64,000 nucleotides of DNA from an uncultured Clostridia bacterium (GCA_944383415.1 CALWPK010000004.1:44197-108196), one strand, 5' to 3'; positions 1-10,407 are shown, counted from the first letter of the stretch. Notes: generated by a model from the letters alone, not told the origin. Program-made: numbers and translations.

Positions 1-55
1 TATCCTGTTACGACCGAACTAAAATTTCCAATAGACGACTAAGGTGGAGAAATAA

Positions 56-1813
56 ATGCTGAATGAAAAACTGATAAATGCTATTAATTCAACCCTAGAC
101 GCCAATGCGACGGACGGATCTGAAAGGAGACTAAAACCTTCTGATTCTAAAATCATTTCTTCTGTAATAGGCAATTTAGATGAGCCAGATAAAAGAATTA
201 TTAGATCAATAAAATATGATCGTACCAGAATAATTGAAAGAATAAAAAATATTAATGTACCTCAAATGGTCAATGGAGAGCCTGCTGAGTTTTCTGTCCT
301 TTCATTTAAAATCGAAAATGGGGTACTTATACGACGAAACGAGTCTGAAATCGAATCGTATTTAGAACAAACTAATACCGAACAATTAATACAAGATCTC
401 TTGCAAGTAGTCCAAGTCATAACGAGCGATGAGCAATTACAGCAATATTATAAAGACCATAAACTTAAAAAAGATGAAAAGCAACCAATACCCTCTGACG
501 AAAAGGTACAATCCAGATTAAGCAAAGAAGATGCGGAAAAATACAAGCATTTAGATAGTTATGTTTCATCAGTTATGGCAGAAAATAAAGATGTATTTGA
601 GTTCTTAAATAGTGAACTCCATTTATCTTCACAAGAATTTGAACAAAAATTGAGCAATTTCCTTAATAACTATATGATTATAAATCTCGATAGTGCTAGA
701 CAACTTCAGATTGATCATAAGACTGCAGTCGACGCGGGAGGGACGCAAGAAATGTACTTTGTCTTGGGTGGTCCAGGTGCAGGTAAATCATCTACCATTT
801 CGACATTAAAAAATGAGATGTATGCATTTCATGCAGAAGCTGACGAGATTAAAAATCAGTTAGCTCTCGTATTCGGAATAGATGTCAATGCTCCAATAAT
901 CCACAAGTTGTCAGGCTTGGTACTAAAGGGAATACTAATACCTACATGCATAGATATGAGAATCAATTTTATATTAGAAAAAATAGGAGATGAGCCTCAT
1001 AAGATAGAGCATCTGGCTCGACAATATATCGAAAAAGGCTATGAAACGAATCTATATTGTATCCACATCGATACGGCAGAATCTAGAATCAGAAATATAG
1101 TGAGAGCATTGGAATATATGAAAAAGGGTGATCCGCCAAGAATGGTCGAGGATTCATCTGCAAAAAACATAGGCTACAATCCTCTCTTGACTTATATTAT
1201 GATGACTCAAATATGCGGTGAATTGTTTAAATCGGGCGAATGTAAAGTAAATCAAAACCCATATTCAATTGATCCTCAGACACTATGCACATTAAACCAC
1301 GGAACTGCAAGAAATGAAGAATTTATAAATGATTACATTAAAGATGCCAAAGTCTATCAAGATTATATTATCAATGCTCTTTTTGAAAGATTTTTAACTA
1401 AGAATCCAGACCTTTCACCTGAATGTCTTAGACTGATAGAAGTATATAAGGATAGAGTCTTAGATGGAAATCCTTATCTTGGTGATGATTTATTTGAAAA
1501 TCTTAGTGATCAAGAGGATATCTATGCCGTTTGCCAATTATTCACCATGACGAAATCGGCTTTAAACAACGCATTTAATCCTCTAGTGATCGTCTCACCT
1601 AATCCTATTTCTCCATTCAGTATTCCGATAGATCAAGAGTTTGATGTGTGTTATAGATCTAAAACAATTCATTTTGGAAATAATCAAAGCAGAATCAATA
1701 TGCTCATTGAAAGCATCACTTCAAAAGATAATGAATTATATAAAAGAGCAAGCGTAGAAGCCGAAAGACTTTTTGCAAAAATGATAGCAAATAAAAAAGG
1801 AGTTGAAGCATGA
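56..1813 (+). CDS. multidomain protein with central zeta-toxin-like P-loop kinase domain
   Basis: 585-aa ORF with SD aaggtggag upstream of the ATG. Walker A FVLGGPGAGKSS is followed by AEADEIK, EKIGDEP and CIHIDTAESRIRN blocks, in the order seen in zeta/PezT-type kinases. The N-terminal ~230 aa and C-terminal ~190 aa carry no motif I recognise. Confidence 0.6.
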   Translation: MLNEKLINAINSTLDANATDGSERRLKPSDSKIISSVIGNLDEPDKRIIRSIKYDRTRIIERIKNINVPQMVNGEPAEFSVLSFKIENGVLIRRNESEIESYLEQTNTEQLIQDLLQVVQVITSDEQLQQYYKDHKLKKDEKQPIPSDEKVQSRLSKEDAEKYKHLDSYVSSVMAENKDVFEFLNSELHLSSQEFEQKLSNFLNNYMIINLDSARQLQIDHKTAVDAGGTQEMYFVLGGPGAGKSSTISTLKNEMYAFHAEADEIKNQLALVFGIDVNAPIIHKLSGLVLKGILIPTCIDMRINFILEKIGDEPHKIEHLARQYIEKGYETNLYCIHIDTAESRIRNIVRALEYMKKGDPPRMVEDSSAKNIGYNPLLTYIMMTQICGELFKSGECKVNQNPYSIDPQTLCTLNHGTARNEEFINDYIKDAKVYQDYIINALFERFLTKNPDLSPECLRLIEVYKDRVLDGNPYLGDDLFENLSDQEDIYAVCQLFTMTKSALNNAFNPLVIVSPNPISPFSIPIDQEFDVCYRSKTIHFGNNQSRINMLIESITSKDNELYKRASVEAERLFAKMIANKKGVEA

Positions 1814-2661
1814 TAGATTTACATCAGCACAGTATATTTTCGGACGGATCAGATTCTATAAATGATCTCATAAAAAACAATGTCAAATCTGATATACAGA
1901 TTATGGCACTTACTGATCATGACACGATCGATGGTTGTAAAAAAGTATTAAACTCTTCTACAAACTATAATATTTCATTTATACCAGGTATAGAATTTTC
2001 AACTCAAGATAAAGGTGAGTCTATTCATATATTAGCATTCGGTTTTGATGTGGATGATCCTATTATAGAAAGATTATTAAAAGAATCTATCGAACTGAGA
2101 AAAAAAAGAGTTTATGAAAGGGTATCAATTTTAGAAAGGGACTTTAAAATCTATCTCACAAAAGAAGAAATGGAATTAATCAATAAATCTAATAATCCTA
2201 ATAAGATATTACTCGCTAATATTTTGATAAAAAATGGTTATGCTGATAACATCTCTGATGCTATAAAAAAATATTTATATCATAAGATGCCCGAATCTAA
2301 ATTGTCTACCGAATATGTATTAAGAAATCTTGATAAATCCACTGCGATATCTTCTTATGCTCACGGCTTGGGCGGTGTGGATGAAAAGAGAGTCGAAAAA
2401 GATGTGTTTGAAGAGAGGCTAAAGCGTTTTGTCAACTATGGTTTGAAAGCGTTGGAATGCTATTACTCGCTATACAACAAAACTGAACAACGATATCTCG
2501 AAGAATCGTCAAATAAATACTCTCTTTTGAGATCTGGCGGAAGTGATTATCATGGCAGTGTAAAAACTGTGAAAATTGGTGAATTATCATCAGACGGCAC
2601 TGTACCTGATACTAAAAATTTTACTATATTGAAAGCTATAAAAAACATATATAAGATATAA
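1810..2661 (+). CDS. PHP-domain phosphoesterase (TrpH/YciV-like)
   Basis: 283-aa ORF whose ATG overlaps the upstream TGA (ATGA at 1810-1813). PHP signatures are IDLHQHSIFSDG, ALTDHDTIDG, IHILAFG and GGSDYHG. Confidence 0.8.
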   Translation: MIDLHQHSIFSDGSDSINDLIKNNVKSDIQIMALTDHDTIDGCKKVLNSSTNYNISFIPGIEFSTQDKGESIHILAFGFDVDDPIIERLLKESIELRKKRVYERVSILERDFKIYLTKEEMELINKSNNPNKILLANILIKNGYADNISDAIKKYLYHKMPESKLSTEYVLRNLDKSTAISSYAHGLGGVDEKRVEKDVFEERLKRFVNYGLKALECYYSLYNKTEQRYLEESSNKYSLLRSGGSDYHGSVKTVKIGELSSDGTVPDTKNFTILKAIKNIYKI

Positions 2662-2886: not shown

Positions 2887-3234
2887 TTAAATAGTTTCCC
2901 CTTCGCTCAATGAGTCGATCGCCGATTTGTCTATCGTCTCAAAGGCTTCGCTAAAAATCTGGGTCAATTCATTATATTCGTCTATTGTTAATGCTAAAAC
3001 TGCCTCTTCTACACAGTTTCTATACGGTTCGAATTTGTGCAGATTCTGTAGCTCATGTTGGATCAGTTTCATATCACTGTCTGACAGTTTGTCTTTCATT
3101 TCTTTTACCTTAGACACAAGAGTATTCACATATGATTGTGCCCCAAAGGCAATCTCTTGCACCAATGTTTTCGCTGAGGACTTCTCTTCACTCTCTTTGT
3201 CCGAAAATATTCTAATGAGATCACGAATAGGCAA
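2887..3234 (-). CDS. hypothetical acidic helical protein
   Basis: 115-aa ORF with a TTG start and no clear SD. The overlapping plus ORF 2927..3262 has antisense-shadow composition. Confidence 0.35.
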   Translation of the reverse strand: MPIRDLIRIFSDKESEEKSSAKTLVQEIAFGAQSYVNTLVSKVKEMKDKLSDSDMKLIQHELQNLHKFEPYRNCVEEAVLALTIDEYNELTQIFSEAFETIDKSAIDSLSEGETI

Positions 3235-3408
3235 CCACGTCGCAACTAGGCTTATTGTCTAGTTGTCTTTTTATTAACTTGAACCTTTATTTTCACATTT
3301 TTCACATTTTTGAAGTGATCTTAAAACTGTAGCGAAATTGAGGCAAAAAAAATCAACCAAATCGCATTGATCTAGTTGATTGTAGTGTATCTATCAGTAA
3401 AATATTAT

Positions 3409-4850
3409 TTAAGATTTTAAAGTGAGGTACCCTTTTTCTCCGCCGACAAGTTCGCCCGCATCATTGTATATCGCGGTGTCTACTCGGGCGTAAGCATAGT
3501 CTACTACAGCACTATCATAAACTGTGCCGTTCCCGCCCACTAAATCGTAATATTGGCTAAACATATCTGTTGATGCAGTCACATTATTTGTCGACCAATC
3601 GTCGCTTATATAAATTGTATTTAAATTTTGACAGTTATTAAACATACCTGTCATTTTTGTCACGCTACTAGTATTGAAACTAGAGAGATCAAGTTCGATC
3701 AAACTAGAGCATCCGTAGAACATAAAAGCCATATTCGTTACATTGGATATATTGAAATTTCTGAGATAAATATTTTTTAGACTTGAGCAGTCGTTGAACA
3801 TATAATTCATAGTAGTCACGTTGCTAGTGTTGAAGTTTGAGACATCGATAGAAGAAAGTGCTGTGCATCTACTGAACATACTACTCATAGAGGTCACTTT
3901 GGAGGTATCGAATTTCTCGTCATCCTAAGTGAGCGTCTGAAGTTCTGAGCATCCGTTGAACATTTGTGTCATATCTGTCACATTCCTTGTATCAAAGTTG
4001 GACAAATTAAATGTATCCAGCGCACGGCAAGATGAAAACATACTTTCCATATTCGTCACTTGACTAGTTACAAATTTTGTCGTATCAATATTAATATACT
4101 CATGATCGTAGCAATTAGTAAACATTCTTCTCATATATGTCACATTTGAAGTGCTGAAAGTAAACAAGTCAAGTCCCTTTAATTGAAACAATTATTAAAG
4201 ATATGAGACATATTCGTTACATTAGTTGTATCAAAATTCGATAAATCTAGGCTTGTCAGCATAGAACATCCATTAAACATTTGTTGCATATCAAGAACAT
4301 TGGTAGTGACAAAATGCGTGACATCCAACTCAATCAAACTAGAGCAATTGTAGAACATATATGCGAGGTTTGTGGTGGCACTGGTTATTTGGAAATTGTT
4401 GAAATCTATCTCTTTGAGGGCTGTGAAATTCCTAAAAGATTGAGACATATCCGCACTGCAGATTATGTCTCCTGTGGATAGAATGTAGACGATACTGGCG
4501 CCGTCAGTGTTTGTAGCACGGTAGATCTCTACCGTGATCTCGTTCCAACTAAGGCTCGCCCCGACTAGTCCTGATAGAAGGTTATCCCCCCCCCCCCGGT
4601 GTATACTGAGGTGTCATTCTCTACTTAGTCGTAATGGTCAAATACTATACGAGATATGCTATCTTCCTCTTGAGTATAGTCATTATTTACCTTGATCGCT
4701 TGGTTCAATGTAATACCACTAGTTATGTCAGTGGCTACATAATATATCCTGGTAGGAGAATAAAATGTATCATTCGTAGCAGAAAAAAGCAACTATCATT
4801 GCACATAGCGATAGTATCAATACGAATAGACAGATGTATATCACTGTCAA
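3409..4850 (-). pseudogene. decayed BspA/DUF285-type leucine-rich-repeat surface (lipo)protein gene
   Basis: Minus-strand fragments 4448-4179, 4191-3925 and 3897-3409 all carry the ~25-aa repeat NVTxMxxMFxxCxxLxxLDLSNFDTS. A 1-nt frameshift near 4185-4191 and an in-frame TAG at 3925-3927 separate them. The upstream continuation (4792-4598) is in another frame, contains an in-frame TAA at 4625-4627, and is joined through a G12 run. A hydrophobic N-terminal segment from TTG 4850 lies in a third frame. Confidence 0.75.
4586..4597 (-). repeat. homopolymer: C12 on plus strand, G12 on the coding strand of the LRR pseudogene
   Basis: Counted directly: gttat + 12 c + ggtg. With 12 G the upstream frame (..VENDTSVYTGGGG) and the downstream frame (DNLLSGLVGASLSWNEITVEIY..) are out of register. 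A run of 13 or 10 G would join them. Confidence 0.9.
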
Positions 4851-5358
4851 TATCTTTCTACCCGGTCTATTGAATCTCTACCTCCTTAGTTTTATTTTTA
4901 ATAAATTTAATGTGATCAATACTTATTTTGATTTATCATACAATTTTAGCAATTGAATGATTAATTTTAGATAATTATTTCAATGACTAGATACTAGATA
5001 TTGAATAAATTATTCAATTTAACTATCCGATTAGGCATACATTTTGACTTTTATAATTAATATAGGATCGCTAAACTAAACTTAATAAGATTAAATAATA
5101 ATATCCGCTTAAGCTTTGTCTATTTGTTGTCTAGATTTTTATTTCAACAATTTGATATGTATCTTAATTAGTATGTACTAGACCAAACAATCTATTACAA
5201 TTTTAACTTTCATCGCCCGTGATATCAACTGATTGGAGCAGAATTTGAAAAAAATACGGAGGAATTATCGCATTTTTGACACATTTTAGACGAAATCAAA
5301 GATTTTCACAGTATTCTACAGTAAAACATTTTTAACTATAAAAGAGATATGATATAAT

Positions 5359-5994
5359 ATGGGTATACTGGATGAATATGCAGATCTCATCAATGCTAGT
5401 TTTAGTCGATGGATAGAAGTTGAGGACGATCAGTCTCGGTGGACGATAGAAGATTTTCCATACTCTACTGGCGTGGATGAGGCTGTCACCTATCCTCACT
5501 GCTGGAGGTGTGTGACAGTGAATCATTGCTGGTTCAAAAATGAGGCGAACAAAAAGCCCTTCCGCTTCGACTATTCCAACACGTCCTTTTCTCAAACGCC
5601 GTTAAGCAAACGAGGACTATACCACCCTCATTGTCACTGCAAAGAATCGGCTATAAACGTACCGAAAGTGAATAATATAAAACTAATACTAGATAATGCT
5701 AAAAAAAATTATTTCTTTGATTCTAAATTAGGTTGGTTCCATAGTTGGGGATATAAAAATTCAGATAAGAACAATTTTATAGAAATGATTAAAAATAAAA
5801 TTGCTGAGGCATTTAGATATGGAAATTATACGAAAGAAAAACTCACGCGAACGGGATATCAAATCAACATCAGCATAACTATACCTGGAAAAAATGAAAA
5901 AATAAACAAAGAGTATGAAATAGTCTCTGCGTTTATCATCTTTCCAAAAGGGACTTTAAGATGTATGACATTAGTTGGAGGTAGAGAAAATTGA
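5359..5994 (+). CDS. orphan MuF/SPP1-gp7-like Cys-His knuckle fused to a putative toxin-tip domain
   Basis: 211-aa ORF with no SD and ~490 bp of ORF-free DNA upstream. The cluster YPHCWRC...HPHCHC resembles the HPNCRC-type end of phage head-morphogenesis (MuF/gp7) domains. The C-terminal ~100 aa (KNYFFDSKLGWFHSWGY...GTLRCMTLVGG) recalls, from memory, a DUF6883-like toxin-associated domain. Confidence 0.45.
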   Translation: MGILDEYADLINASFSRWIEVEDDQSRWTIEDFPYSTGVDEAVTYPHCWRCVTVNHCWFKNEANKKPFRFDYSNTSFSQTPLSKRGLYHPHCHCKESAINVPKVNNIKLILDNAKKNYFFDSKLGWFHSWGYKNSDKNNFIEMIKNKIAEAFRYGNYTKEKLTRTGYQINISITIPGKNEKINKEYEIVSAFIIFPKGTLRCMTLVGGREN

Positions 5995-6329
5995 AATATT
6001 TTGATAAGGTTAAATTGACCGTAGATAGAGACCGTTACAAAGAAGATGGCATTCAAAAAGGTGAAATTGGGACGATATGGCTACCTGAGATCCGAGATAA
6101 TGAATTCTATGTCTGCTTTGAGACGGGCGATGAATATAATTGGTACAAATACTCTATGATTAAAATCTCAGATCTAGAGTTTGTAGAGGACGGAAAATGC
6201 CCCGATGAGGACATTTTAGACGCGCTACCCAAAAACAATCCTAAATGGTGGTGCAAGGTCGAGTACGGCTACATTACAAATTTGATAGGCGAGAAGAAAA
6301 ACAAGATACCGTATGATTATGACTCATAA
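5991..6329 (+). CDS. immunity-like small protein, paralog 1 (DUF4926-like N-terminus)
   Basis: 112-aa ORF whose TTG start overlaps the upstream TGA (TTGA at 5991-5994). The N-terminus FDKVKLTVDRDRYKEDGIQKGEIGTIW is SH3-like/DUF4926-like. The C-terminal tail LPKNNPKWWCKVEYGYITNLIGEKKNKIPYDYDS is shared with the next ORF. Confidence 0.6.
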   Translation: MKYFDKVKLTVDRDRYKEDGIQKGEIGTIWLPEIRDNEFYVCFETGDEYNWYKYSMIKISDLEFVEDGKCPDEDILDALPKNNPKWWCKVEYGYITNLIGEKKNKIPYDYDS

Positions 6330-6405
6330 GTGAACTTTATCATTTTTGCTCTTTGAACCAATTCTAAAAGTAAACATCGGGGATCGCACATAGGAGGATA
6401 TCAAA

Positions 6406-6789
6406 ATGAAAGAATATGACGAGGTTAAGGTTATCAACGACAATGAATATTATAATTCTCAAGGAGTTTTTGCGGGAATGGTCGGCAGGATCATACAGCC
6501 TGAGATCAGAGATAATAGTTTTTTAGTTTGTTTTATCGATCCTAAATTCTCAGACCCGACATTTGACTTCTCATCTGAAGAAAATATAAAGTCTCTAAAA
6601 AATGACATCCTGCTAGATATCAAAATTTCCGATTTAGAATTAGTCAAGGAAGGAATGTGCTCTGATAAAGATATTTTAGACGAATTGCCCAAAAACAATC
6701 CTAAGTGGTGGTGTAAAGTCGAAAACGGGTATATTATGAACCTGCTTGGCGAGAAGAAAAACAAAATCCCTTATGACTATGATTCTTAA
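6406..6789 (+). CDS. immunity-like small protein, paralog 2
   Basis: 127-aa ORF with SD aggagga upstream. It has the same architecture and a near-identical tail, LPKNNPKWWCKVENGYIMNLLGEKKNKIPYDYDS. Confidence 0.6.
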   Translation: MKEYDEVKVINDNEYYNSQGVFAGMVGRIIQPEIRDNSFLVCFIDPKFSDPTFDFSSEENIKSLKNDILLDIKISDLELVKEGMCSDKDILDELPKNNPKWWCKVENGYIMNLLGEKKNKIPYDYDS

Positions 6790-6914
6790 ATAATACAAGC
6801 ATATATATATGTTTTAAATTATAAAAAAATCATAAAAATAAAAAAATACAGGAAAAGATATAAAATTACATATTTTTTTATTGGTTTTTTAAAAATTTTT
6901 GAATATATTTTAAT

Positions 6915-7538
6915 ATGATTCATTTTGGAATTAATTTCAAAAAGTCAAAATTCGGTTTCTCTTTGACTCGCGAAAATTATATTCACCCATCAAAAAAGAG
7001 TTCATTTAATAATACCGAATATGATGACGAATATATTATAAGCCATACCAAGCGCGCATTATTCAATTTTGATTTGAATATGAGATTTTTTTCTAAACTT
7101 GATAGCGAAGAATTCAATCGCACGATTGAGAATTTTTCTAGGCAATATCCGCAATTCATAGAGATCAAAGACTTAAACGAATACCGATATCAGAGCGGAT
7201 ATTATTTGCTCGTTTTGGACAAATACAAACAAATTTATCTCGGCACCACCTATGATATTTGTCGTAGGATTCGCGATCATTGGACGAGGTCGAAACAATT
7301 TGATAGATTGATGTTCGGCTCGGTTTTCACTTCTCGACTCTCAATTGATTCATTCCGCCCGCTAGACACCACTAGAATTTTTGTCTACACTACTAATGAG
7401 ACATTTGAGAATGAGGACAAATTTATTTCCTATTTCCCCGATAAATTCATCCTCAACCGCACAAAGGGAGGTATGCTTGATCTTGGTTTGTCTCAGGCGA
7501 TATCAAATAGGAAATATCGCAATCTTATTGATATTTAA
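6915..7538 (+). CDS. GIY-YIG nuclease-domain protein
   Basis: 207-aa ORF. The segment SGYYLLVLDKYKQIYLGTTYDICRRIRDHW fits the GIY..YIG..R..H layout. A downstream FENEDKF..NRTKGG could supply the Glu/Asn. The N-terminal ~85 aa are unassigned. Confidence 0.5.
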   Translation: MIHFGINFKKSKFGFSLTRENYIHPSKKSSFNNTEYDDEYIISHTKRALFNFDLNMRFFSKLDSEEFNRTIENFSRQYPQFIEIKDLNEYRYQSGYYLLVLDKYKQIYLGTTYDICRRIRDHWTRSKQFDRLMFGSVFTSRLSIDSFRPLDTTRIFVYTTNETFENEDKFISYFPDKFILNRTKGGMLDLGLSQAISNRKYRNLIDI

Positions 7539-7638
7539 ATAAAAAAATTATCTGCGAATTATAAAAAAGCACTTTATCATGCAATGAGTGATCTAAGTCT
7601 TATCACTTTGCAATTATTAAAGTTCATTTTTTTAATAG

Positions 7639-8832
7639 TTATTTATCTGTTTTTGAACAATTGTTATCTAAGTTGATAACATCATTAAACACATTTAATG
7701 GTTCAAGATTTTTGAATTCCCCCTCTAAAATATTCTTCAACTTATCAATGCTTTTTTCATCAATATTCGAATCCTCAATTATAAACTTTAAATAGCAATT
7801 GTAATTACATACATTTTTAATTTCTTCATTTAAACAATCTATTTTATAATCATCAAGATATTTTTTCACATCCTCTCTTTCAAGCGATTTTTCTATGAAT
7901 GATAAAAACTCTTTTATCCCTTTTACCAATGTTTCAACATTTTGTTGCATATCAAAATTGTCTGCAGCATAATTTTTTATAATCATACTGATCGGTTCTG
8001 ATATGTTTGTAATATATATATTTAAACAACTTTTGTCAAATCCTGAAATTTTAGTTTCCCCTGTAAAATAAGCCATTGAGAATGCTTCATTAAATAAATA
8101 TTTGAGGACAAAAACTATATTTACAAAAGGTGAATATGTCCAATTAACATGATATGGATCAATTTTTTTATTGTCTATATAAAAATACTGGATATCTGAA
8201 AATCCATCGTCAAGCAAGACATTATGAGCGATGAATTCAGTCAATGCTTCATAAATGTAATTTTTATTTATATTCAGAGCATTCTCAACTGTGTTTGCGC
8301 TTATTACTCTTCTATTTGTAATTAGTCCACCGTGCGCAATATAATATGTATAATTTTCTTTGCTGGTATCTTCTTTTGTCAAATTGGTATACTTTTCCTC
8401 ATCATATTTCAAAAACTCTACGAAATTCATTGCATGTGTCAACTCGTGCAAAAAGATAACTATATGTCTTATCACTTGATATTTATAATTGTTTAAATCT
8501 TCACCCGTCAAACCTTCTGGAATTTCATTTTTCAAAAACGCTGTATCAATATTAGGAAATAATTTTAATTCGTATTTTAAGGCTAAATATTTTTCATCAA
8601 AATCTTCAACCAATACACCCGCTCTTCCATTTTCCCCAATACCTATCGGCTCAATTTTGAAATCTTCAATCCTTAATAAATTATCTATGCACCTGTCATC
8701 AACAGGAAACTGCCGGCAAACCGCTTTTAGATATTTTTGAACGATTTCATCTAAAAAATCAGATTGATTTTTAATCAATTCTCTTAGATGACTATTCATA
8801 TATTTCCCCAAAAAATATTCACTTCTTTTCAT
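7639..8832 (-). CDS. HExxH motif protein (putative Zn-metallopeptidase-like)
   Basis: 397-aa ORF with a single VIFLHELTHAMNF motif and a downstream EALTEF as a possible third ligand. No signal peptide is evident. Confidence 0.45.
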   Translation of the reverse strand: MKRSEYFLGKYMNSHLRELIKNQSDFLDEIVQKYLKAVCRQFPVDDRCIDNLLRIEDFKIEPIGIGENGRAGVLVEDFDEKYLALKYELKLFPNIDTAFLKNEIPEGLTGEDLNNYKYQVIRHIVIFLHELTHAMNFVEFLKYDEEKYTNLTKEDTSKENYTYYIAHGGLITNRRVISANTVENALNINKNYIYEALTEFIAHNVLLDDGFSDIQYFYIDNKKIDPYHVNWTYSPFVNIVFVLKYLFNEAFSMAYFTGETKISGFDKSCLNIYITNISEPISMIIKNYAADNFDMQQNVETLVKGIKEFLSFIEKSLEREDVKKYLDDYKIDCLNEEIKNVCNYNCYLKFIIEDSNIDEKSIDKLKNILEGEFKNLEPLNVFNDVINLDNNCSKTDK

Positions 8833-9046
8833 ATAAATATGATATCATAAATTGGGTAAATTGTAAATATTAAAATTGCAATTTCAATCATTATTTGATT
8901 TTTAACACGACAAAAGGATTCTCATCTTCTCTTAATTATTTATAAAATCAAAATACAAAATATTAAAAATTGAAGAAATAAAACAAAATATTGATGTTTT
9001 ATTAATATTTTTCATAAAAAAATTTAGAAAATTTTTAAATTTAAGG

Positions 9047-9073
9047 TTGAATTTTTATTTTTCGTGATATAAT
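9047..9073 (+). promoter_or_regulatory. sigma-A-like promoter with extended -10
   Basis: ttgaat (9047-9052), a 15-nt spacer, then tgatataat (TGn + tataat, 9065-9073). It lies 18 nt upstream of the ATG at 9091, with SD gaggtg at 9081-9086. Confidence 0.5.
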
Positions 9074-9090
9074 TATAGCCGAGGTGAAAT

Positions 9091-10407
9091 ATGAACGAAT
9101 TTAAAACTATTCCAATTACCCTAGTCACAGGTTATTTAGGAAGCGGGAAAACCACATTGCTAAATCACATTTTAACCAACACAAAAGGATATAAAGTGGC
9201 AGTCATCGTAAACGATATTGGCGAAGTGAATATAGATGCGGATTTGATTGAAAAAGGCGGCATTGTAAATAAAAAAGAAGAAAGCTTAGTTGCTCTTCAA
9301 AATGGCTGTATATGTTGCACATTACGTCAAGATCTGATCGAGCAAATACACGACATTGTAAAGCAAAGAAAATTTGACCATATTATTATTGAAGCAAGCG
9401 GAATTTGTGAACCTATTCCAATCGCTCAGACGATCAACTTTTTGACAGAAAGTTTCAAAGCAAAGAAAATGCCAATCTATTGCAAACTTGACGCTATCAT
9501 CAGCGTAGTGGACACTCTCAGAATGGTGCAGGAATTCGGATGTGGAGACGAACTCGTCAAACAAAATATCGGCGAGGAAGATATAGAGAACTTGGTCATT
9601 CAACAGATCGAATTTTGTGATATTTTGATTATGAACAAAGTAAGTGAAGTGAGCGCAGACGAATTGCATAAAGTCAAGAAAATCATAAAAAGTCTACAGC
9701 CAAAAGCAAAATTGATTGAGACAGATTATTCAAATGTGGATATTTCAGAAATCCTTGACACCGATCTTTTCGATATGGAAAATCTCTTGACATCTGCAGG
9801 CTGGTTCCAGGAATTGGACAAAGATATTGAAGATATCAAGAAAGAAAATGCCGACCTAAGTTTAGATCACCACGAGCATCACCACAATGACGACGAGGAT
9901 GATGACGAAGATGACGAGGACGAGGATGATGAGCATCACGACCACGAAGATGATGAACACGATCATAGCGACCATAAACACAGCAGGCAAAAAGACGATC
10001 ATTCACACCATCATCACCACCATCACGATGAAGGTGGCGAGACCGAAGAATATGGAATCGGCACATTCGTATATTTCAGGAGAGAGCCGTTAGATAGATT
10101 AAAATTCGAAGACTGGGCGAACAAAGATTATGGCAAACAAATTATCCGTACCAAAGGACTACTCTATTTCTCAGACGATTTGCGCACAGCGTACTTATAC
10201 GAGCAAGCGGGCAGGCAAAAAGTCCTAACAGACAATGGTCCGTGGTACGCCACATATCCAAGATATCAAATAGAACAACTTTTGCTAAATGACGAAAAAT
10301 TCAGATCTGATTGGGACGAAAAATATGGGGACAGAATGATAAAATTGGTATTCATTGGTCAACATATAGACAAGAAAAAAATTAGCGAAGAATTGGATAA
10401 AATTTAA
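9091..10407 (+). CDS. COG0523/CobW-family G3E GTPase metallochaperone with His/Asp-rich insert
   Basis: Motifs are GYLGSGKTTLLNHIL (P-loop) and GCICCTLR (CxCC). An internal ~65-aa tract reads HHEHHHNDDEDDDEDDEDEDDEHHDHEDDEHDHSDHKHS..HSHHHHHHHDE. A CobW C-terminal-like end follows. Confidence 0.9.
   Translation: MNEFKTIPITLVTGYLGSGKTTLLNHILTNTKGYKVAVIVNDIGEVNIDADLIEKGGIVNKKEESLVALQNGCICCTLRQDLIEQIHDIVKQRKFDHIIIEASGICEPIPIAQTINFLTESFKAKKMPIYCKLDAIISVVDTLRMVQEFGCGDELVKQNIGEEDIENLVIQQIEFCDILIMNKVSEVSADELHKVKKIIKSLQPKAKLIETDYSNVDISEILDTDLFDMENLLTSAGWFQELDKDIEDIKKENADLSLDHHEHHHNDDEDDDEDDEDEDDEHHDHEDDEHDHSDHKHSRQKDDHSHHHHHHHDEGGETEEYGIGTFVYFRREPLDRLKFEDWANKDYGKQIIRTKGLLYFSDDLRTAYLYEQAGRQKVLTDNGPWYATYPRYQIEQLLLNDEKFRSDWDEKYGDRMIKLVFIGQHIDKKKISEELDKI

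Follow-up and report, generated by a model that had tools for sequence, protein, structure and literature searches.

The 64,000-nucleotide (nt) stretch of DNA analysed here (the window), from an uncultured Clostridia bacterium (GCA_944383415.1, CALWPK010000004.1:44197-108196), begins within a cassette of three genes on the plus strand, which encode a small helical protein, a zeta-like P-loop kinase and a PHP phosphoesterase of the TrpH type. Positions refer to the window unless another locus is named. The 3' end of the small gene (last 13 codons and TAA at 40-42) covers positions 1-42, and its translation, YPVTTELKFPIDD*, corresponds to the C-terminus of the small proteins P0148, P0149, P0151 and P0152. 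The adjoining spacer (43-55, plus strand), read directly from the sequence, contains the ribosome-binding site GGTGGAG and separates the small-gene stop codon from the kinase ATG by 13 nt; a comparable spacing of 9-13 nt was found in loci L001-L008. The kinase gene (56-1813) encodes 585 amino acids (aa), and its TGA overlaps the ATG of the PHP gene (1810-2661, 283 aa) as ATGA at 1810-1813.

An initial annotation of the window had described the kinase and PHP open reading frames (ORFs) with this overlap, and both were confirmed. It had treated them as a two-gene unit; the linkage of kinase and PHP held, but a third, small gene was found, which extends the unit to three genes. The edge of the window conceals this key gene, so that one of the three components is missed when the window is read alone. 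The complete small gene was seen in L098-L101, which carry a kinase identical to that of the window, and encodes 155 aa (9521-9988 in L098). It is preceded by a near-consensus promoter, TTGACA-17-TATACT (11 of 12 positions, extended -10). Known RNAs, including riboswitches, were looked for upstream of the cassette and none was found.

Properties of the encoded proteins

The kinase was matched by Pfam Zeta_toxin (PF06414) at aa 226-370 (E 4.5e-12, 46.3 bits against a cut-off of 22.3) and contains the motifs FVLGGPGAGKSS at aa 235-246 and AEADEIK at aa 260-266. Zeta_toxin matched 19 of 19 family members, and AAA_33 matched 14 of the 19, always more weakly. The best PDB match of the family profile was zeta toxin 1gvn_B (E 1.6e-6). 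In the corresponding profile alignment, K244, D263, E308, R350 and R362, all invariant across the kinase family, are placed opposite K46, D67, E116, R158 and R171 of zeta, and HADADAIK of the kinase is paired with VIDNDTFK. The Walker A motif GGPGAGKSS (aa 238-246, positions 767-793), with K244, aligns with zeta GQPGSGKTS (K46), and its residues G238, G243 and K244 are invariant in 19 of 19 members. The codon of D263 lies at 842-844; its counterpart, zeta Asp67, is the catalytic base (PMC3062530; PMC5923241). Judged by these residues, the protein is probably an active zeta-fold phosphotransferase with a complete phosphotransfer machinery.

The substrate site reads differently. In zeta, Thr118 contacts the beta-phosphate of UDP-N-acetylglucosamine (UDP-GlcNAc, UNAG) and Arg120 its UDP phosphates (PMC3062530). 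The family-wide signature EK[IV]GDE, present in the window as E308-K-I-G-D-E313 (977-994), takes the place of zeta E116-G-T118-G-R120-T, so that I310 and D312 occupy the positions of T118 and R120 and the UDP-GlcNAc-binding residues are missing. The contacts to UDP-GlcNAc, which the initial annotation had named as the substrate of zeta/PezT toxins, are thus not conserved, and the protein should not be filed as a PezT/zeta-type UNAG kinase. The substrate would not be held as zeta holds UDP-GlcNAc, and the pocket is predicted to be a different one.

Family-wide conservation of the kinase core extends to about aa 450, and the regions aa 1-225 and 451-585 are clade-specific. The N-terminal region contains the family-wide motif L-x-x-x-P-x-P-D-x-x-I/L and, in the window clade, an insertion of about 130 aa, and the C-terminal region contains a conserved (I/V)(F/Y)(N/D)P motif. 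The profile searches that had been proposed for these two regions assigned no family to either.

The identification of the second enzyme as TrpH-like with an intact active site was upheld, as was that of the kinase as zeta-like, by Pfam matches and by conserved catalytic residues and ligands. The PHP protein matched Pfam PHP (E 2.5e-10, 41.4 bits against a cut-off of 26.4) and carries the motifs IDLHQHS..SDG, TDHDT and GGSDYHG. Its nearest NCBIfam model was RNase RNM (E 2e-31, 109.2 bits against an equivalog cut-off of 375), followed by 3',5'-nucleoside bisphosphate phosphatase (E 1.5e-27, 96.4 bits against a cut-off of 400). By NCBI's criterion and on this sequence comparison, the protein is classed as a divergent TrpH-type member and not as an orthologue. 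PDB sequence matches span aa 2-265, including the insertion domain, and comprise the TrpH-type entries 3e0f, 9etk (RNase AM of Pseudomonas aeruginosa), 7ug9 and 2yb1 (Cv1693). The complete ligand set of a trinuclear metal site (HxH, D, H, E, H, H, DxH), formed by H5, H7, D12, H37, E62, H73, H185, D246 and H248, was invariant in 12 aligned sequences, in trio-linked and stand-alone relatives alike. In the insertion domain, R97 was invariant and R100 nearly so (at least 90%); we take their counterparts in Cv1693 to bind the 5'-phosphate. According to PMC11528712 and PMC7261194 (citing Ghodge and Raushel 2015), enzymes of the TrpH family take the 3'-phosphate off adenosine 3',5'-bisphosphate (pAp) and also shorten oligonucleotides with a 5'-phosphate, beginning at the 5' end.

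In a simple neighbour-joining tree, the PHP proteins of the window, L001, L002 and L013 formed one clade beside a clade of stand-alone proteins. The cassette enzyme looks like a recruited copy of an ordinary enzyme of the lineage, with an active site that carries no visible change. One further close relative, P0030 (475 aa, 53% identity), has an additional, unrelated C-terminal region of about 190 aa that contains an HExxH-like motif, HESLH; two genes may have been fused here or joined by read-through.

The small protein of the window is P0151-like and predicted to be all-helical. Its relatives make up only 18 clusters, all from the same narrow lineage. A helical protein of about 150-165 aa adjoins the kinase in every lineage for which sequence is available, and that of L097 was detected by the small-protein profile (E 3e-12). 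The small gene would accordingly rank as a more universal partner of the kinase than the PHP gene, and it occupies what appears to be the canonical position of an epsilon/PezA-type antitoxin. It was also found to be mosaic between types: compared with P0137 and P0151, the proteins P0148 and P0149 combine the N-terminal two thirds of one type with the C-terminal third of the other, P0148 being P0137-like up to about aa 107 and P0151-like beyond. This pattern indicates recombination inside the gene.

Between the window type and the L003 type, the small gene showed the highest ratio of nonsynonymous to synonymous substitution rates (dN/dS 0.44), ahead of the kinase (0.23) and PHP (0.11), and protein identity between the window and L001 was 31%, 49% and 58% for small gene, kinase and PHP, respectively. 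All three genes are maintained under purifying selection, and the small partner evolves fastest, as is usual for antitoxins.

Distribution of the trio and its insertion at tRNA-Met

The kinase family is confined to a few uncultured lineages. Only 16 close homologues were present among 5.8 billion clusters, and among 185,579 species genomes the kinase occurred in one, a metagenome-assembled genome of an uncultured Clostridia bacterium. An exhaustive profile search of 1.84 billion representatives returned about 20 clusters that have, besides the core, a portion of the C-terminal region in common (E 1e-18 to 1e-110), together with about 100 generic zeta-like domains at weaker scores. A metagenome scan at the Joint Genome Institute (JGI) with the family alignment yielded one locus only, and a plasmid collection contained only a P-loop match to the kinase at 24% identity. 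None of 121 representative kinase hits was fused to a PHP domain.

The conserved synteny of kinase and PHP that had been expected was found: the pair recurs with kinases 49%, 32%, 29% and about 26% identical to that of the window. The order small gene-kinase-PHP is shared by L098-L101 (identical kinase), L003-L008 (85-88%), L001 and L002 (49%) and L015 (29%), where the genes overlap by 4 nt and lie beside radC, lysS, divIC, yabP and recD2; the kinase-PHP overlap is usually 4-8 nt. In L013 (32%) kinase and PHP are present and the upstream part is lost at the contig end, and in L016 (23%) small gene and kinase are followed by the contig end. L097 (1-6849; 26%) contains the permuted order kinase-small gene-PHP directly after murA-ftsQ-ftsA-ftsZ, which is good evidence that the three genes are functionally linked and not mere neighbours. 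In total, the PHP gene is present in four lineages, in one of them in the permuted order, and missing from one kinase clade. The universal core would then consist of the small protein and the kinase, with PHP as a frequent but not obligatory third member. At one locus only, L102, the kinase is followed by a gene of the dUTPase/dCTP-deaminase family (2028-2486) instead of PHP, so that an enzyme of nucleotide metabolism is encoded there as well. The trio of L097 lies near murA, and classical zeta toxins inhibit MurA through phosphorylated UNAG (UNAG-3P); this proximity may be a coincidence.

In the species of the window, the operon is preceded by tRNA-Met(CAT), about 270 nt upstream of the small gene, and a terminator hairpin. 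Upstream of the tRNA lie type IV secretion genes (VirB4-like ATPase, pilin, VirD4-type coupling protein), and downstream of the operon a strain-variable stretch is followed by cobW, pth, mfd, ftsH and tyrS. L099 contains the identical kinase between entirely different flanks, with spoIIR, an amidase, hydrogenase, hisS and tRNA-Met on one side and an HSDR_N-like gene, an ADP-ribosylglycohydrolase, a CCA-adding enzyme, Bro-N and a helix-turn-helix (HTH) gene on the other. The block shared by L098-L101 and the window comprises 3.96 kb at 99.7% identity, and outside it L099 has only one further similarity to the whole window (249 nt at 73%). A role of the cassette as a type IV secretion effector was considered and rejected, because secretion genes are missing beside the identical cassette in L099 and also from other lineages.

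On its left, the roughly 3.9-kb block is bounded by the tRNA 3' end, outside the window, and on its right by GCAACCA (3231-3237, plus strand), an exact repeat of the final 7 nt of the tRNA-Met gene. Four different downstream contexts diverge right after this heptamer. In L099, the 38 nt that follow it match the native terminator behind the tRNA, giving a 45-nt direct repeat with 89% identity. These boundary features map to 9177-9291 in L098 and to 8984-9290 and 13176-13220 in L099. GCAACCA alone is not rare, with 4 copies in the window against 4.7 expected, and the argument for an islet therefore rests on the coincidence of the heptamer with the breakpoints. The tRNA 3' end, the direct repeat and the different flanks are those of a tRNA-associated islet, and together they are the signature of a site-specific insertion at a tRNA gene. 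No integrase gene was found within the 3.9-kb block, so that mobilisation would have to come from elsewhere. In L099, a further 31 nt of tRNA 3' end are repeated 192 nt beyond the intact tRNA, which suggests a tandem build-up of several insertions at the tRNA-Met site.

The block further includes a 115-aa ORF on the minus strand (2887-3234), within the 99.7%-identical part common to L098-L101. It has no family match and is missing from the gene calls of L003 and L007, two sister lineages; its start shifts with the flank, and its membership in the module is doubtful.

Related systems, proposed mechanism and alternatives

Few substrates are known for the zeta family: UDP-GlcNAc (3'-OH), UDP-N-acetylmuramic acid (UDP-MurNAc, UNAM; 4'-OH) and NAD (3'-OH), in each case a sugar hydroxyl of a nucleotide-containing small molecule (PMC3062530, PMC5923241). 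The retained catalytic core, the lost UDP-sugar contacts and the linkage to a 3'-phosphatase/5'-3' exonuclease point to a new substrate for the kinase described here. The cassette shares with epsilon/zeta and PezA/PezT the Zeta_toxin domain with its Walker A Lys, catalytic Asp, Glu and two lid Arg, a small helical protein of about 155 aa encoded directly upstream in the operon, and the location on a mobile element. PezA is of similar size. In contrast to zeta and PezT, the kinase has Ile and Asp in place of T118 and R120 and carries about 225 additional N-terminal and about 135 additional C-terminal residues; the upstream protein lacks similarity to epsilon and PezA, and PHP is an extra enzymatic gene, translationally coupled to the kinase.

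AvrRxo1, an NAD 3'-kinase with the binding antidote Arc1, is likewise a zeta-fold kinase with added domains that phosphorylates a nucleotide-ribose 3'-OH, and a product of this kind is one that a TrpH-type 3'-phosphatase could reverse. PDB searches gave no sequence match to AvrRxo1, however, the secretion context is inconsistent and the set of partners differs. The PHP protein aligns over its full length, insertion domain included, with TrpH/YciV (RNase AM) and Cv1693 and shares their nine ligands and the Arg pair R97/R100, whereas it falls far under the equivalog cut-offs and lies in a kinase operon instead of standing alone as a housekeeping gene. The proposed logic of the cassette has precedents. 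In DarT/DarG and in toxSAS with its small alarmone hydrolase (SAH), a modifying toxin is combined with a co-encoded hydrolase that erases its product, and in HipBST a three-gene operon places a kinase toxin under a separate small protein. The enzyme families of these systems differ from those found here. Ppl, a single-gene defence system, also associates a PHP domain with a P-loop NTPase, but the cassette consists of two separate genes for these activities and has a zeta-type kinase rather than an ABC/OLD-like ATPase. The view of the initial annotation that the gene pairing is not a described system agrees with full-text literature searches, which returned nothing on a zeta toxin paired with PHP or TrpH apart from one unrelated co-mention. 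The likeliest classification of the cassette is as a zeta-type toxin-antitoxin variant that has not been described before.

Tentatively, and with somewhat less than an even chance of being right, we favour a tripartite toxin-antitoxin-like module on a tRNA-Met islet, with the small protein as a restraint on the kinase and PHP as the enzyme that clears the kinase product. One strong promoter would transcribe the small gene, kinase and PHP. With ATP, the kinase would transfer phosphate to a sugar hydroxyl on a molecule that contains a nucleotide but is not UDP-GlcNAc, candidates being the 3'-OH of a 5'-nucleotide, a dinucleotide cofactor and the 3' end of RNA or tRNA, and the product would be harmful or arrest growth. 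Its position, co-conservation and fast evolution suggest that the small protein partners directly with the kinase and inhibits or regulates it in the manner of epsilon/PezA. Known TrpH-family chemistry suggests that PHP could hydrolyse the kinase product and so provide a second, enzymatic safeguard or a reset. If the cassette were lost or the partners inactivated, for instance during infection, the kinase would be unleashed, and the islet would be stabilised or the infection aborted. This mechanism is favoured because it accommodates the intact catalytic residues of the kinase, the fast evolution of the small protein beside it, the translational coupling to a phosphoesterase, the mobile block and the patchy, very rare occurrence, and because known zeta-family kinases modify sugar hydroxyls of nucleotide-containing molecules and a 3'-phosphorylated nucleotide is a TrpH-type substrate. 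If PHP reverses the kinase product, an enzymatic antidote would be added to the zeta toxins, in parallel to DarTG and toxSAS-SAH, and a TrpH-type PHP enzyme would have a role outside RNA housekeeping. A narrower version, rather unlikely as a whole, has the kinase as the 'writer' and PHP as the 'eraser', with a chemistry that would be new for the zeta family: the kinase would 3'-phosphorylate 5'-nucleotides, dinucleotide cofactors or the 3' ends of RNA or tRNA to give a poison or signal of the nucleoside 3',5'-bisphosphate (pNp) type, the co-translated PHP would erase it, and the fast-evolving small protein would gate the kinase, with the trio residing on a tRNA-Met islet that lacks its own integrase.

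Several observations weigh against the toxin-antitoxin-like module. The small protein had no match in Pfam, NCBIfam, PHROGs or a PDB profile search, no similarity to epsilon, PezA or Arc1 was detected, and its structure model was unusable (predicted local distance difference test score, pLDDT, 46). The AlphaFold2 model of the kinase, built from an 8-sequence alignment, was mediocre (pLDDT 66, predicted template-modelling score 0.39), and the structure search that had been proposed for its terminal regions likewise gave nothing, since Foldseek of the model against the PDB returned no match with an E value below 0.9; structural inference from this model was dropped. L014 and L102, which represent one kinase clade, have a protein in the upstream position, not recognised by the small-protein profile, and no PHP gene. 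PHP is therefore not the sole or obligatory antidote, and this part of the initial proposal, which had cast it as a possible enzymatic antidote, has to be restricted accordingly. Close relatives of the PHP protein (51-54% identity) stand alone among housekeeping genes in related genomes (L009, L010-L012). In the neighbour-joining tree, the PHP proteins of L015 and L097 branch elsewhere, and the trio-linked proteins are not cleanly monophyletic. The surroundings of the trio in L097 (downstream of ftsZ) and L015 (next to radC-lysS-divIC-yabP) belong to the core chromosome, which would also fit a resident physiological role. Finally, PADLOC-DB 2.0 models, Ppl included, did not match PHP at E values up to 1, and for the kinase gave only a P-loop-level match (PDC-M54A, 15.7 bits, E 4.8e-4); the cassette is neither Ppl, which the initial annotation had mentioned, nor another system covered by PADLOC. 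The PHP-less clade, the stand-alone PHP relatives and the core settings of L015 and L097 are the points that keep other explanations alive.

One of these, which we consider unlikely, is a role in RNA or DNA end-processing, in which the kinase would add phosphate to the 5'-OH ends of cleaved RNA, PHP would then degrade or trim these ends as a 5'-to-3' exonuclease dependent on a 5'-phosphate and the small protein would be an adaptor, as in the 'kinase-mediated decay' of Grc3/Rat1 or in counter-defence against ribotoxins. RNase AM/TrpH attacks RNA fragments that carry a 5'-phosphate, starting at their 5' end, the order of kinase and nuclease with translational coupling suits such a pathway, and PHP-less clades could draw on a stand-alone TrpH or RNase J in trans. 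The 14 kinases matched by AAA_33 also count in its favour, as this family presumably includes kinases of the polynucleotide kinase (PNK) type, and so does the D-x-hydrophobic-K/R motif after the P-loop, which we take to be shared with T4 PNK. However, Zeta_toxin scored better than AAA_33 in every family member, and T4 PNK (1ly1, E 0.32) and the Pnkp kinase (4jst, E about 0.3) matched the family profile at the P-loop only. The membership of the kinase in PNK-type end-healing systems (T4 PNK, Pnkp) is likewise not supported, as no ligase was found in any locus and no nuclease partner is present. The kinases are acidic (isoelectric point 5.2-6.4), which is unusual among nucleic-acid enzymes and makes a polynucleotide substrate slightly less likely. 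An accessory conflict module would explain the rarity, patchiness and mobility of the family better than a role in RNA housekeeping, and no characterised zeta-family enzyme acts on polynucleotides (PMC3062530, PMC5923241, PMC5087710).

Anti-phage defence by abortive infection overlaps mechanistically with the toxin-antitoxin-like module and appears quite unlikely as a separate explanation; phage defence would be the selected function, the kinase would be the effector or make a signal, PHP would break down that signal or nucleic acid, and the small protein would act as sensor or inhibitor. The mobile islet in a strain-variable hotspot adjoining a type IV secretion element is in keeping with defence, as are the retention of the three-gene architecture while the small component changes quickly and the frequency of zeta-like domains in virion and giant proteins of phages, which places this kinase type in phage-host conflict. 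The lack of a meaningful PADLOC match for kinase or PHP, flanking genes that are not annotatable as defence genes and the position of the trio among cell-division and housekeeping genes in other lineages argue against it. A similarly low probability is assigned to a non-toxic, resident kinase/phosphatase cycle on a nucleotide metabolite or signal, such as a pNp-type molecule, with the small protein as regulator. The core settings of L097 and L015, purifying selection on all three genes and the nesting of PHP among stand-alone, apparently housekeeping TrpH-like genes would suit such a cycle. The family is, however, extremely rare and patchy, a 99.7%-identical block has moved into an unrelated flank at a tRNA gene, and opposing enzymes on one promoter would run a futile cycle unless tightly regulated. 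It is very improbable that the kinase and PHP form a protein-phosphorylation switch in the manner of CpsD/CpsC/CpsB (YwqD/YwqC/YwqE), with the small protein as substrate or activator. The Cps system has the same architecture of P-loop kinase, small partner and PHP phosphatase, and P-loop enzymes can be protein kinases, as in the case of HPr kinase, but the cassette PHP aligns over its full length, R97/R100 and the nucleotide-binding insertion around them included, with TrpH-type nucleotide phosphoesterases and not with CpsB-type phosphatases, and Pfam and NCBIfam gave no match to bacterial tyrosine kinase (BY-kinase), ParA/MinD or CpsB families.

Zeta-like domains of viruses and the region downstream of the cassette

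Viral contigs contained 80 zeta-like domains, all of them in large virion or giant ORFs and none with a PHP neighbour, and the idea of a phage-borne kinase-PHP pair was rejected on this ground. The ORFs are about 700 to more than 3000 aa long and carry the domain C-terminally (4258-6618 in L054, 3391-6777 in L029, others in L017-L096), and one is fused to a phage portal protein (Phage_portal_3 and Zeta_toxin). These arrangements suggest that viral zeta-like kinases are packaged in virions.

The initial annotation had placed the cassette in an island with other conflict genes. The strain-variable surroundings and the mobile block agree with this view, but the neighbours could not be annotated as conflict genes, and none of the ORFs at 3238-9000 was annotatable as such. 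This part of the window is strain-variable: L098, L100 and L101, which carry the identical kinase, differ in it by whole blocks. It includes three consecutive ORFs on the minus strand (3409-4448) that resemble a frameshifted gene of the DUF285/BspA-type leucine-rich-repeat family, and a 397-aa ORF (7639-8832) that L003, a sister lineage, lacks. At 5359-6789, a Cys/His-rich ORF of 211 aa precedes two small paralogous ORFs (112 aa and 127 aa), and none of the three had a family match. At their 3' ends the two paralogues share 77% identity over 171 nt, and ...KNKIPYDYDS forms the C-terminus of both products. The layout of this segment resembles that of a toxin gene with an array of immunity-like genes.

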